A DNA stretch of 64,000 bases from the NCBI GenBank assembly GCA_964291215.2, contig OZ219790.1, positions 160,001 to 224,000 of the forward strand. The letters are read 5' to 3'. This document shows, one piece after another, positions 18,598-48,632 of the stretch. Origin of the DNA: Alphaproteobacteria bacterium (GTDB lineage: Bacteria > Pseudomonadota > Alphaproteobacteria > MPNO01 > UBA830). How positions within the stretch are numbered: the first letter of the stretch is position 1; every line of letters starts with the position of its first letter. The position numbers and the translations under genes were made by a program. A model generated the notes under the pieces. That model ran no database searches and was not told where the DNA came from. It was given only the letters and a program-made list of their open reading frames with translations.

Positions 18598-19865
18598 GGA
18601 TTACGCAACCTGATGTCTGGAAATTGTCGTGAAGCTCTCAGTCATCGAGCTGTTCCCATTTGATGTATGCCTTGGTTTCGGTTTCCCATTTTTCGTCGAT
18701 GAGGACCGCGGTTGAGAGGCGCTCCAACGAGGCGAGGTTCGGAAAGACCCTGACTTTGGAGGTGCGCCGCTTGAGCTCTTGCTGGATCGGCCGCTCGATG
18801 CCGTTCGAGGTTCGCATACGTTTGCGGTGAGCATCGGGCAAGGTAAAGACGGCGAGCCCCGCATTCTTTTCCAGCCAGTCTGCGAAGCCTGGATGCTTGT
18901 CGCTGGCCACGAGGGCGCCCAGTTCAGCCTCGGCGGTTTGGAGTGAGGGCGCATGGCTCCGAGCTGTTTTCCAATACGTTTCCTGATGTCGTTGTTCGGT
19001 GCACGGCGTTTTGCGCCAAGTGGAACTGGCAGCGCTGCCACGTCGCCGCGCCCAGCACCGCGCGTCGTGCCGCTTTCAGCCCAGCATGGTCATCCGAGAC
19101 GATGAAGGTCGTACCATGCAGGGCTAGCAAGCTTTCCAGGAAGGCTCTCCAATGGACCTCGGCCTCGGAGAGCGCCACAGAGAGCCCCGGAACGTGCCTG
19201 CAGCCCCTATTCCGATGGCCGAGAGCACTGCAACATCCCGCACAACGCCGTCATGGCGGGCTTTTTCGTAGCGCGCATCCAGGATCAGGTATTTCATCAG
19301 CCCAAGGGGCCGGTTGCGCCAGGCGGCGAGTTCTTCATCGAGCAACCTGGTGGCCCCCTGAGAAGAGGACAGGCTCCCGAACTCGCGCATTACATCTTCG
19401 GCCTGCCGCGTGGAAACACCCTTGATGTACATCTCGGCTACGGCCAGCATGACGGCGCGAGAAGATCGCTGGCCGCGTTCAAGCGACTGGGGGGTCGTCC
19501 CCGTGACCGTTTGGCACCTGAACGGCAACAGGGGGGTGTCGATCCGCTTGTAGCCGTTGGCATAGCCCTGTCGTTCCGGTGTCCGGTGGCCCGCTTTCAA
19601 GTACTGTTCGCGCTCGATTTGCATCGCAAGCTCGAAGAGCTGACCAAAGACCCGCCCCAGATCCGTTGCTCCGTTTGCGATCAGATGTTCCAAAACGGCC
19701 TCAATCGTCGTAGTGTGTCGCAGCTCCATTCGCTTCCTCCATGAATGTTTTTCAACTCCATGGGATAGCACGATGGCGCCGCGTTTCACTGGGGGGCTAG
19801 CCCCCCAGTGAAACGCCTCAAAGCGCAAACCTCAGACAAATTTCCAGACATCAAGTTACAGTACC
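18598..19865 (-). mobile_element. IS256-family element (degraded) inserted in hsdM
   Basis: Terminal IRs GGATTACGCAACCTGATGTCTGGAAAT / ATTTCCAGACATCAAGTTACAGTACC; 7-8 bp TSD GCGGGAG(G); motifs EMYIKGVSTR, LDARYEK, QRCQFH, RTSNGIER. Confidence 0.92.
19781..19816. repeat. Perfect 36-bp palindrome in the IS256 leader
   Basis: GCGTTTCACTGGGGGGCT|AGCCCCCCAGTGAAACGC. Confidence 0.9.
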
Positions 19866-20989
19866 GCGGGAGGATGATGGCCATCACGCCGTCGTCCTTC
19901 AGATAGTGAAACCCGTGCAACAAGAAAGCGAAGTCAGCCGCCGACTTCGGCGCCAGCCCGTAGTTCCTGAAGCGCATGTCCTCGCCCAAGGCCTCGCTCG
20001 GGGTCCAGCGGTAGCTGAATGGCGGGTTGGCGACCACGGCGTCGAAACGGGGCTTCCTCGCCGGGTTGGTCTCGCGGAGCAAGTCCCAGTCATTGGTCAG
20101 CGTGTCGCCGTGATAGATCTCGAACTCCGAGTCCCTCACTCCGTGCAGCAGCATGTTCATCCGCGCGAGGTTGTAGGTGGTGATGTTCTTCTCCTGACCG
20201 CAAATCCTGCCGATGCCGTGCGGCCCTATGCGCTTGCGCACATTGAGCAGCAAAGAGCCCGAACCGCAGGCGAAATCCATCACGCTGGCAAGTTGCTCCC
20301 GCTTGCCCGCCTTGGGCTCCTGACTGTCGAGTGCGACGATGCGGAGAGGATGTCCGATATCCGCTGCGGGGTATAGAACTCACCGGCCTTCTTGCCCGAG
20401 CCAGCAGCAAACTGTCCGATCAGATACTCGTAGGCATCGCCCAGCGTATCGGTGTCTGTGGAGACCCCCGCGAGCCCCTCGGCCAGCCTGGTGATGACCG
20501 TGCAGAGTTTCGCGTTCCGATCCGCGTAGGTCTTGCCAAGCTTGTCCGAGGCGAGATTGATCTCCGAGAACAGTCCCGAGAATGTGCTCTGGAACGACTC
20601 GTTCTCAATGTAGTTGAAGCCTTCGTGGAGCGTATCGAGCAGCTCGCCATCATGGGTGCGGGCCATATGGGCAATGCTGGCCCAGAGGTGATCGGGGCGA
20701 ATGACATAGTGCGCCTTGAGACGCATCTGCTTCTCGAACGCCGACACATCGTCGGGGTTCTGATCGTACCAGACGGACAGGGAGGACCGGCCTCCATTGC
20801 CGACAGCGTTCGGGTCAGGATAGTCGCGCCCGAGTTCCTTCCTCGCGGCCTGCTCGTAATTGTCCGAGAGGTACCGGAGGAACAGGAATGCCAGCATGTA
20901 GTCGCGAAAGTCGTCCGCGTTCATCGCCCCGCGAAGCTGATCGGCGATGGCCCAGAGGGTCTTGCCGGGTTGTTCATGGCCCTGTTCTG

Positions 20990-22162
20990 TCATGTCGCGT
21001 CATTCATTGCAGCTGTCGTACCACTTGGAAACAAGGCGGGGTTGAAGGGATACTGGCCGATGAACTCGTGGAGAACCTTCCGGAAGTGTTGCTTGTTCTC
21101 CTCCAGCATCTCTCGCGGCTCGAACAGCGAATAGTTGCCGTGGCTGAGGATGTTGATCAACCGTGTGTGAAAGATACCGTCTTCATCGTCGGAGTCGCGT
21201 TTGATGCATTGAGAAAAGTTATCGTAGCCATGAAAGCTGGCGGTTTTCTCCAGAATTGCGCGAAGCATGTTGAAGTGATGCGTGTACAACCTGCCGTCGC
21301 GGTCCGCCTCGTAGAGATCGACAAGCGCCGCCACATGGTGGAAAAATGGCGTATTCCCGGTTTTGCGCAAGAGAAGCCCATCCGGCGACCCGTCGCGGCT
21401 GAGAAAATACTTGTCCGCCCTGGACAGCTCATTGCAAAGCACGTTGAAAAACAGTGCGTGGTGGGTCGAGATCACCGTCTTGTGCTGGCTGTCCGTCCCC
21501 TTGAGAAGTTGCGCCAGATGATTTGCCACCGCGATGGCGTTGTGCTCATCGAGCGATGAGACCGGATCGTCAATGTAAATGTACTTGACCCAGTTGTAGG
21601 GACCGGCTCCGTCGTCGTCGAGCGCGAGCTGGACGATTGCCAGGAAGAAGCACCAGATGAAGATGTTCTCCTCGCCGCGGGAGACCTTGATGGCCTCCTC
21701 GTGGCGGGTTTCATACTCGTCACCGTCATCGCCTGCGGCGCCGTCCTTCTTCACCCTGAACTCCCGGGTGAAGACCACCTCCCAGGTGGCAGTGTCAATG
21801 CGGAACCCGAAATCGGCGTAGCGGCTGAGCAGGGCACGGATTCGATTGTCCATCTCCATCGACTCGAGACCGGCGAAAAAGCTCGAGTCCGTGTTGAGCG
21901 TCAGATTCCGCTCGATGTCATTCTCCAGATCGTTGTCCCACGAAAACAGGTCTTCGGTGAAGGCATTGAAGTAGAGCGTGTCGCGCGGTTCTGTCTCGTC
22001 ATCGGTGCTTGCGACCTTGCCGAGGTCCTTGAAGGCGGTGGACAGGCGGGTCTTGCCCGTGCCGTTATAGGCATAGAGCAGGATGAACTTCTTGTTCTCC
22101 ATCTCTTGCCGCAGGTGCACGGCAAGGGTGTTGCGGTCCGGGAACGCCGTTGCATCGCTCAT
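20990..22162 (-). CDS. prrC: PrrC-family anticodon nuclease (ABC-ATPase + HEPN)
   Basis: YAYNGTGKTRLS Walker A, YFNAFTEDLF.WDND, SRGEE signature, IDDPVSSLD, STHH, LR..LEKTASF.G, RLINILSH; embedded in a type I RM locus. Confidence 0.88.
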   Translation of the reverse strand: MSDATAFPDRNTLAVHLRQEMENKKFILLYAYNGTGKTRLSTAFKDLGKVASTDDETEPRDTLYFNAFTEDLFSWDNDLENDIERNLTLNTDSSFFAGLESMEMDNRIRALLSRYADFGFRIDTATWEVVFTREFRVKKDGAAGDDGDEYETRHEEAIKVSRGEENIFIWCFFLAIVQLALDDDGAGPYNWVKYIYIDDPVSSLDEHNAIAVANHLAQLLKGTDSQHKTVISTHHALFFNVLCNELSRADKYFLSRDGSPDGLLLRKTGNTPFFHHVAALVDLYEADRDGRLYTHHFNMLRAILEKTASFHGYDNFSQCIKRDSDDEDGIFHTRLINILSHGNYSLFEPREMLEENKQHFRKVLHEFIGQYPFNPALFPSGTTAAMNDAT

Positions 22163-47515: not shown

Positions 47516-47745
47516 CCGATGTCAGCTTCACCAACAATGCCGGAGAACAGAAGATCAGGATGGCAAAGCTCAAGGTGTCCGGATGCTTCCGCTCCACGCA
47601 AAAGCATGGTGCCAAGCTACCTCACCTCCATGGCCGCACTCGGCTACAACCCACTCGTTGCCACCCAGATCGCCCTCGACGGAAAAGCCGCAGACATCAT
47701 CAACGAGCACTATGAATCAGAACCCAACAAGGGGTGAGTAGATAC

Positions 47746-48632
47746 CAGGTGCCAAAGACGGCCGGTCACGGGGACGACCCGTCCCCAGTCGCTTGAACGC
47801 GGCCAGCGATCTTCTCGCGCCGTAGCCGAGATGTACATCAAGGGCGTTTCCACGCGGCAAGCCGAAGATGTAATGCGCGAGTTCGGGAGCCTGTCCTCTT
47901 CTCAGGTCAGCCGGGCCACCAGGTTGCTCGATGAAGAACTCGCCGCGCAACCGGCCCCTGATGAAATACTTGGATGCGCGCTATGAAAAAGCCCGCCATG
48001 ACGGCGTTGTGCGCGATGTCGCAATGCTCTCAGCCATCGGAACAGGGGCTGCAGGCACGTTCCGGGGCTCTCTGTGGCGCTCTCCGAGGCCGAGGTCCAT
48101 TGGAGAGCCTTCCTGGAAAGCTTGCTAGCCCTGCATGGTACGACCTTCATCGTCTCGGATGCCGGGCTGAAAGCAGCACGACGCGCGGTGCTGGGCGCGG
48201 CGATGTGGCAGCGCTGCCAGTTTCACTTGGCGCAAAACGCCGTGCACCGAACAACGACATCAGGAAACGTATCGGAAAACAGCTCGGAGCCACGCCTCCT
48301 CACTCCAAACCGCCGAGGCTGAACTGGGCGCCCTCGTGGCCAGCGACAAGCATCCAGGCTTCCTGGCTGAAAAACAATGCGGGGCTCGCTGTCTTCACCT
48401 TGCCCGATGCTCACCGCAAACGTATGCGAACCTCGAACGGCATCGAGCGACCGATCCAGCAAGAGCTCAAGCGGCGCACCTCCAAAGTCAGGGTCTTTCC
48501 GAACCTCGCCTCATTGGAGCACCTCTCAACCGTAGTCCTCGTCGAGGAAAAATGGGAAACCGAAACCAAGGCATCAAATGGGAACAGCTCGATCAGCTTC
48601 ACAACAATTTCCAGACATCAGGTTGCGTAGTC
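47746..48632 (+). mobile_element. IS256-family remnant, 5'-truncated by IS66
   Basis: Homologous to 18598-19520 in reverse; ends CAATTTCCAGACATCAGGTTGCGTAG. Confidence 0.88.

Follow-up and report, generated by a model that had tools for sequence, protein, structure and literature searches.

The window analyzed here, meaning the whole 64,000-nucleotide stretch C1:160001–224000 of a two-contig, 6.15-Mb alphaproteobacterial genome (G000; 64% GC, rated 99.3% complete, with one 16S match), holds copies of several insertion sequence (IS) families, a group II intron, and a large serine recombinase element, all eroded by short deletions. Comparison with the other copies in the genome showed that the deletions peak sharply at 5–7 bp and that alleles with the same end points are found in dozens of copies, often without microhomology and in mosaic combinations. 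We consider it rather likely that such deletions are made rarely by an enzyme and are then spread by short-patch copying between repeats that favors the deleted state. A sequence-only reading of this DNA had proposed a repeat-targeted inactivation in which each copy is cut repeatedly and repaired by end joining; the repeat bias of the erosion stands, but the idea that each copy is cut and end-joined again and again is unsupported, given the identical ends, the unclustered sites, and a rate of new sites like that of single-copy DNA.

Deletion spectrum and junctions

In G000, 21-mers seen at least three times hold 28% of the bases. The repeats were grouped into 68 families, some overlapping, and up to 60 full copies per family were compared with a scripted union reference. 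Across all families, distinct deletion alleles numbered 193, 40, 51, and 34 for lengths of 1, 2, 3, and 4 bp, rose to 240, 492, and 287 for 5, 6, and 7 bp, and fell to 99, 55, and 19 for 8, 9, and 10 bp, with a second bump at 11–14 bp; 65 of the 74 shared alleles of 10–15 bp enclose a smaller allele. The size lock at 5–7 bp holds for private alleles too. High-copy families carry 7–17.6 deletions of 4–8 bp per kb per copy compared with 14–39 single-nucleotide polymorphisms (SNPs), and have no intact transposase remaining. The gaps were polarized as deletions by undeleted outgroups, namely G004 of the same genus for the IS630 element, the sister genome G001 (about 7% divergent) for the recombinase element, and a 96%-identical protein for IS1380. 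The features concerned, together with three single-copy controls, are as follows.

18598–19865, minus strand: IS256-family copy A, inside hsdM, with an 8-bp target duplication and 14–16 short deletions
47746–48632, plus strand: IS256-family copy B, 5′-truncated, with 16–17 short deletions, partly common with copy A
40585–41707, minus strand: IS630-family copy, with 15 sites missing versus sister copies and 17 versus an undeleted homologue in G004
43010–43995, strand not given: one part of the most abundant repeat family, a putative IS66 in the sequence-only reading, split by the intron, with the other part at 47515–47746
44090–47516, minus strand: eroded group II intron, interrupted at 44604–46606, with Rfam RF02005 at 47314–47480
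44604–46606, minus strand: large serine recombinase element, nested in the intron, with 3 copies in the genome
36100–37659, plus strand: IS1380-like transposase, an open 519-aa frame with 2 codons missing, likewise in 2 other genomic copies
13943–14052, strand not given: 110-bp IS256 miniature matching one IS256 end, with copies differing by the same 6-bp gaps
24958–26613, minus strand: control, single-copy transposase, an open 551-aa frame; best plasmid matches annotated IS1634, about 30% identity
27107–29359, minus strand: control, single-copy hsdR remnant, gap-free over 752 residues versus 4 of 4 homologues tested
18091–20993, minus strand: control, single-copy hsdM in three pieces; listed related-strain unitigs gap-free on both IS flanks

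The two IS256 copies had been reported from the sequence to differ by short deletions, and copy-to-copy alignment bore this out, including the quoted 12-bp and 4-bp segments, which are present in copy A and absent from copy B. Compared with other genomic copies, copy A lacks 5–8 bp at 16 sites, two of them in a poly-G run, and copy B likewise at 16; for the insertion of copy A, unitigs of public runs contain an empty-site joint at 18590–19866, with 8 letters fitting either side. The family comprises 51 full-length and 64 partial copies in G000, and its lesions, previously taken to be copy-specific, recur among the copies at about 19 sites per 1.3 kb in mosaic combinations rather than being private. 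The IS630 copy, the intron, and the serine recombinase element had been described as similarly eroded, and they are: besides the 15 sites of the IS630 copy, the two halves of the intron lack 31 and 12 sites versus other copies, with empty-site joints present in unitigs, and the recombinase element lacks 37 segments of 5–7 bp versus its orthologue in G001, with 35 of its 40 alleles fixed in all three genomic copies. The element at 43010–43995 (126 full copies and 241 matches of at least 100 bp in G000) lacks 37 sites versus other copies, a number over-counted through alignment jitter. The loss of codons suspected in the IS1380-like transposase was confirmed as two codons near residue 385 versus the 96%-identical homologue; the same two codons are missing from an IS1380 protein of another assembly (P0378), most of the other 80 aligned homologues having no gap. 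The serine recombinase element occupies one site within the multi-copy group II intron, with related runs showing both the filled and the empty site.

Junction microhomology amounts to 0 bp in 379 of the 1116 alleles (578 expected), to 0–1 bp in 652, to at least 2 bp in 464 (about 219 expected), and to at least 4 bp in 150 (30 expected). Microhomology is thus moderately enriched but not the rule, and the earlier description of the deletions as flanked by it holds for a minority. A junction motif, corresponding to a cut 5′ of a purine–pyrimidine step at both ends, beats microhomology-matched controls in G000 (log-likelihood 354 versus 108–150), although it is weak there, at less than 1 bit per position. 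No flanking motif resembling a protospacer- or transposon-adjacent motif was found within 25 bp of the deletions. The alleles are unclustered, with spacings of 3–15 bp avoided. Hot-spot clustering of deletion sites was rejected, there being 61 overlapping pairs versus 75 expected, as was a centering of deletions on SNPs, which occur at deletion centers at 0.07 compared with a background of 0.11.

The deletions are real and are not a product of assembly. Deleted and undeleted alleles both stand in k-mer unitigs, which are not polished consensus, of three public runs from one study. Run X1 contains a strain without difference over 48605–49900 and may be the source sample, hence not independent; one of its unitigs, of 711 nt, matches the eroded recombinase element gap-free. 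In flanking DNA the divergence is about 6% for run X2 and about 2% for X3, and both contain the same alleles. No RNA dataset was listed among those containing this DNA. The phase within a copy is that of the assembly, no listed unitig covering a whole IS. The undeleted form of the serine recombinase element is present in run X2.

Sharing between copies and the single-copy background

The 5–7-bp deletions have a mean frequency among copies of 0.465, with 241 of 474 above 0.5, while deletions of 1–3 bp average 0.09. By length, the mean frequency is 0.30–0.38 for 5–8 bp and 0.07, 0.05, 0.13, and 0.07 for 1, 2, 9, and 10 bp, high allele frequencies being confined to 5–8-bp deletions and their composites. 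In frequency-matched pairs, all four allele combinations are commoner for deletion–SNP than for SNP–SNP pairs at every distance (0.47 versus 0.24 at 4–6 bp); SNP pairs also recombine between copies. Copies that are 1–3 SNPs per kb apart differ by 3.1 deletions per kb, of which only 0.024 are private. Pure trans-mobilization of already degraded copies, an alternative raised earlier, fails here, the deletion states not following the SNP relationships of the copies. Deletions common to paralogues against their genealogy, a feature of deletion-biased nonallelic gene conversion, are present.

Among deleted copies, flanking SNPs are still polymorphic in 14 of 50 cases at 1–3 nt, 46 of 95 at 4–10 nt, and 87 of 128 at 11–20 nt—that is, co-transfer of flanking SNPs with the deletion fades over about ten bases—suggesting that a donor is needed. 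Genomic distance between copies had no clear effect on sharing. Private deletions at new sites in repeats number 45 (31 by a stricter rule) versus 2375 private SNPs, which is near the ratio in single-copy DNA. Copying from one copy to another accounts better for the excess in repeats. No 5–7-bp deletion occurs in an IS66 family (L261, C2:295617–297985) whose 11 members are almost identical and have 21 SNP alleles, as expected under copying if no deleted donor was available to so young a family, and 51 of 76 two-copy pairs are without such an indel. Three copies of the IS66 family carry single larger deletions of 55–82 bp.

In single-copy DNA, G000 was compared with G001 over 842 kb of the 5.0 Mb of the latter. 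Over 568 kb, 130 gaps of 5–7 bp were found in G000 versus 20 in G001. In rough classes of open reading frame (ORF), there were 60 versus 8 such gaps in 83.5 kb of non-coding DNA (0.72 per kb in G000) and 38 versus 10 in 139 kb of broken genes; in intact genes, 6-bp gaps numbered 21 versus 0 and 3-bp gaps 11 versus 7. The ratio in single-copy DNA is 60 deletions per about 3900 lineage substitutions, or about 0.015. No rise in gaps was seen in single-copy DNA near repeats, with 0.15–0.5 per kb at all distances, and low-copy segments nested in other elements, taken together, exceed this only a little (0.84 versus 0.5 per kb). The process is thus genome-wide in the G000 lineage and is 10–20 times sparser in single-copy DNA than in high-copy families. 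The earlier contrast with clean single-copy dead genes holds for hsdR, but single-copy DNA is hit too, at that lower density.

The hsdM and hsdR controls belong to a decayed type I restriction cluster (18091–29359) into which two more transposases have inserted; it comprises hsdM split by IS256 and a frameshift, an AAA_13 gene, a partial hsdS, and hsdR without about 258 N-terminal residues. The IS256 miniature adjoins a 123-bp repeat (13827–13949) with dozens of genomic copies, many without 6–7 bp. Two tandem phage-integrase-family genes (14313–18034) have a duplicate at C1:887502–891197 of 94% identity with few 5–7-bp gaps. At 33007–36041, one ORF of 897 aa encodes ankyrin repeats and another encodes pentapeptide repeats, part of the ankyrin region being multi-copy in the genome. 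Gene content (ntrB/ntrC/ntrY/ntrX-like, trkA, hfq, and hflX genes) and the best matches, all of them alphaproteobacterial and none above 74% identity, indicate an alphaproteobacterium.

Origin and spread of the deletions

Other genomes of the genus, G002 (about 74–78% nucleotide identity), G003, and G004, were sampled at short loci. G002 shows the pattern shifted by one base, its clean alleles numbering 34 at 5 bp, 26 at 6 bp, and 2 at 7 bp. Its junction motif has the same geometry as that of G000 and is strong (log-likelihood 149 versus 38–43 in matched controls), one end being AT in about three quarters of alleles, and 33 of 62 alleles are without microhomology. Three copies in G002 with 0 SNPs between them hold different deletion sets; all 8 segregating deletions stand in a fourth copy whose 7–8 SNPs are not shared, and three deletion sites are common with copies that are 10–15% diverged. 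In these small genome samples, no such deletions were found among four IS630 copies from G004, whose pairwise alignments contain 257 mismatches in 7.4 kb, or among six IS copies from G003 (243 mismatches in 17 kb), while the IS256 copies of G036 are near-identical and too young to be telling. G000 and G002 thus carry the trait, which was not seen in the other three genomes, G001, G003, and G004. The two-ended motif and the strain-specific ruler point to an enzyme behind the deletions.

The candidate genes searched for were absent or did not follow this distribution. The end-joining proposal had pointed to Ku/LigD, Argonaute, and IS-targeting spacers, and none was found: G000 has no match to PF02735 (Ku) or to PF02171 (Piwi domain of Argonaute; short Argonautes may escape this model, and no search for them was made), none of the five genus genomes matches PF01068 (ATP-dependent ligase, as in LigD), PF07282 (TnpB) matches in G000 lie below the cut-off, and none of the 112 present-day CRISPR spacers (96 + 16) has a near-full match elsewhere in the genome. 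The CRISPR loci are L276 and L275 (C1:574173–594400 and C2:2063980–2069600); locus one has a 97-repeat array adjoined by genes for a Cas4–Cas1 fusion, Cas3, GSU0053, and GSU0054, with a RAMP gene coming after, and locus two has a 1046-aa Cas9 with a 17-repeat array. NucS/EndoMS (PF01939) has no match in G000, and G002 alone has two partial ones. Tests were also prompted by what T4 endonuclease VII and type IB topoisomerase (TopIB) do: endonuclease VII was not found, nor were a Y1 transposase or RecT, and PF01028 (TopIB) matches in 0 of 5 genus genomes, each of which has one type IA gene (TopIA). Because mutS, recJ, xseA, topA, and one UvrC-sized GIY-YIG gene are present in all five genomes, none tracks the trait, and each was rejected as the cause. 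In G000, 33 of 36 E. coli replication and repair proteins are matched in an open frame, the ligB match being the ligA gene, and the core set, including mutL, recA, and recFOR, is intact; ung, recX, and dprA have no match. The dprA gene is missing in G000 (no tblastn match and no Pfam match over the cut-off) and present in the four other genus genomes, with three family members in G002; its loss was rejected as a common cause, G002 showing the pattern yet having dprA.

The explanation that we hold with somewhat more confidence than doubt has two steps. In the first, visible as a pattern, deletions of 5–7 bp arise across the genome at a low rate, some 0.02 for each base substitution, and both ends tend weakly to lie at cuts 5′ of a purine–pyrimidine step; an enzyme would make them by taking the bases off one DNA strand. 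In the second, a deleted and an undeleted copy would pair, the extra 5–8 bases looping out; the loop would be clipped, or filled in from the short strand, such that the recipient gains the exact deletion while keeping its own SNPs. Copying would probably run mostly from full-length to deleted, through a patch reaching only some ten bases to either side. In a family of many copies, numerous alleles could enter and each could sweep, single-copy DNA showing the first step only. That deletions arise and spread within the same size window suggests a single enzyme whose ruler measures 5–8 nt (5–6 in G002). The lower edge of the window may come from intact MutS/MutL removing loops of up to 4 nt, which is the loop limit of MutS (a general background figure, not found in the literature searched).

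Several observations weigh against this explanation. No responsible enzyme has been found. Eighteen sister-pair triples gave 45 apparent losses versus 15 gains, as expected with states near-independent of genealogy, such that one-way and two-way copying both fit; a one-way direction is suggested by the frequency skew only. Family overlap makes the allele counts partly redundant and the copy pairs not independent, and alignment may account for part of the SNP depletion seen 1–2 nt away from junctions. Some low-copy elements are heavily eroded: the 3-copy recombinase element has 35 deletions over a stretch in which the undeleted X2 unitig shows 12 substitutions; the two copies of one group II intron, separated by 45 SNPs, have 31 and 4 gaps; and in family 12 some 27 alleles stand beside 55 SNP alleles. 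At 0.02 per SNP, tens of former or foreign copies must be assumed for such elements. The recombinase element and the 2-copy intron do sit within high-copy elements, from which former copies may, on that assumption, have been lost by excision or conversion. The intron (L279 and L280, C1:94843–96884 and C2:13007–14825) is nested in another intron family, with no third copy.

An extension of the two-step explanation is offered tentatively, as a possibility that we doubt more than we believe: two lineages of the genus may carry a dedicated, probably mobile, loop-clipping nuclease that both writes and propagates fixed-size deletions, with dead copies serving as a template library that inactivates incoming intact copies. 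This would constitute a guide-free, spacer-free defence with sequence memory.

It is rather unlikely, in our judgment, that a nuclease is instead recruited by copies that pair, or by some mark that mobile DNA carries, and makes fresh 5–7-bp deletions at preferred sites without any deleted donor, with copying being minor; this is the sense of the repeat-induced silencing in the earlier reading. Fresh cutting would explain the heavily eroded 2–3-copy elements and the 8 deletions among 0 SNPs in G002, and a junction motif does exist, strong in G002; private counts may also underestimate the true rate, about 3-fold, if alleles spread quickly. However, the motif in G000 is too weak to fix sites, overlapping alleles show no excess, and neither the untouched 11-copy IS66 family and the 51 of 76 two-copy pairs without such an indel nor the absence of a leak into single-copy DNA near repeats is as this reading would have it. 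The partial co-transfer of flanking SNPs within about 10 nt also speaks for a donor, and no source of guides was found.

Improbable, and more so than fresh cutting, is a process with no dedicated enzyme, in which slippage or annealing of short single-stranded repeat fragments at forks, resembling SPDIR (short-patch double illegitimate recombination) or oligonucleotide recombination, is filtered by mismatch repair that removes SNP-bearing events and loops of up to 4 nt and passes those of at least 5 nt. The moderate microhomology excess fits, mutS and mutL are intact, and such a filter would leave SNP-free short patches; moreover, dprA, an SPDIR suppressor in Acinetobacter (10.1101/2023.11.22.568220), is among the genes missing in G000. 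Yet G002 has the pattern along with its three dprA-family genes, recJ, xseA, recA, and recFOR are intact, there is no RecT, and SPDIR products are variable in size, from 3 to about 100 bp (10.1101/2023.11.22.568220). Fork annealing does not explain why the sizes stop sharply at 8 bp, why a motif stands at both ends, why 33 of 62 alleles in G002 lack microhomology, or why the trait is absent from G001, G003, and G004.

Very little probability is given to two-way ordinary gene conversion combined with trans-mobilization of degraded copies and drift, atop a genome-wide 5–7-bp mutator: recombination of SNP pairs between copies and the apparent losses in the triples agree with it, but half of the 5–7-bp alleles stand above 0.5 in frequency while 1–3-bp alleles stay rare, and deletions are more decoupled from SNPs than SNPs are from each other. 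An assembly or polishing artefact in repeats, put forward earlier as an alternative and favored by the indirect phase, is hardly credible, with both allele states in unitigs of three runs, the gap-free 711-nt unitig of X1, a second genome with a related but shifted spectrum, and a clean 11-copy IS66 family.

Comparison with known systems and implications

In the repeat-induced point mutation (RIP) of filamentous fungi, new C-to-T changes are made in paired repeats and transposons die. The outcome here is alike in that repeats are mutated far more densely than single-copy DNA. Unlike in RIP, the changes are 5–7-bp deletions, apparently copied from a donor and found in single-copy DNA also, and a young 11-copy family is untouched. 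On the triggering of lesions by duplication, a feature of RIP, the observations point both ways: that clean family and the single-copy-like rate of new sites speak against it, and the eroded 2–3-copy elements speak for it. We know of no bacterial process that damages DNA because of its being repeated.

Closest in its working is deletion-biased nonallelic gene conversion, in which deletions pass between paralogues more often than insertions, about 3.4 to 1, shrinking neutral repeats cooperatively (PMC3280953). The passage of deletions between paralogues is the same; the present case is bacterial, confines the origin of deletions as well as their spread to 5–8 bp, and has a junction motif and copied patches some ten bases long, whereas the parts of that work available to us mention no size window. 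SPDIR is similar in that intragenomic DNA templates very short indel patches, but it is very rare, variable in size, and drawn from heterologous donors (10.1101/2023.11.22.568220), whereas here the size is fixed, and RecA, RecJ, and RecFOR, which chiefly suppress SPDIR, are intact. As far as the accessible text goes, small deletions in Ca. Burkholderia pseudogenes are Ku-independent, with microhomology at 171 of 396, and show power-law sizes and an excess of 3n lengths in single-copy pseudogenes (PMC6054270), in contrast to the peak at 5–7 bp, frameshifting sizes included, and the repeat excess found here. From the portions consulted, the UvrC-dependent microimports of H. pylori are very short recombination patches (mean 28 bp) but bring in substitutions out of transforming DNA, and no bias toward deletions is stated (PMC9426483), and NucS short-patch repair left no indels at repaired sites in the data seen (PMC11551744). 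The defining features of Ku/LigD end joining, microhomology-mediated end joining (MMEJ), NucS, TopIB, CRISPR self-targeting, and SPDIR are not found here, MMEJ being at odds with sizes locked at 5–7 bp and with the 0–1 bp of microhomology in most alleles.

The pattern is apparently undescribed: in the literature searched, which covered neither subscription papers nor supplements, there was no report of it, nor of a size-locked 5–7-bp signature as frequent as point changes in repeats. Its presence in G000 and G002, and not in G001, G003, and G004, means that the gene can be sought by a comparison of five genomes, and a direct biochemical assay can be built on the junction motif and the window of loop sizes. 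Such a process would steadily cripple repeated mobile DNA. If copying is one-way, IS explosions in this lineage are self-limiting, a point relevant to how IS bursts come to an end in host-restricted or IS-laden genomes; and if the defence by a template library were true, it would be a bacterial counterpart of RIP.

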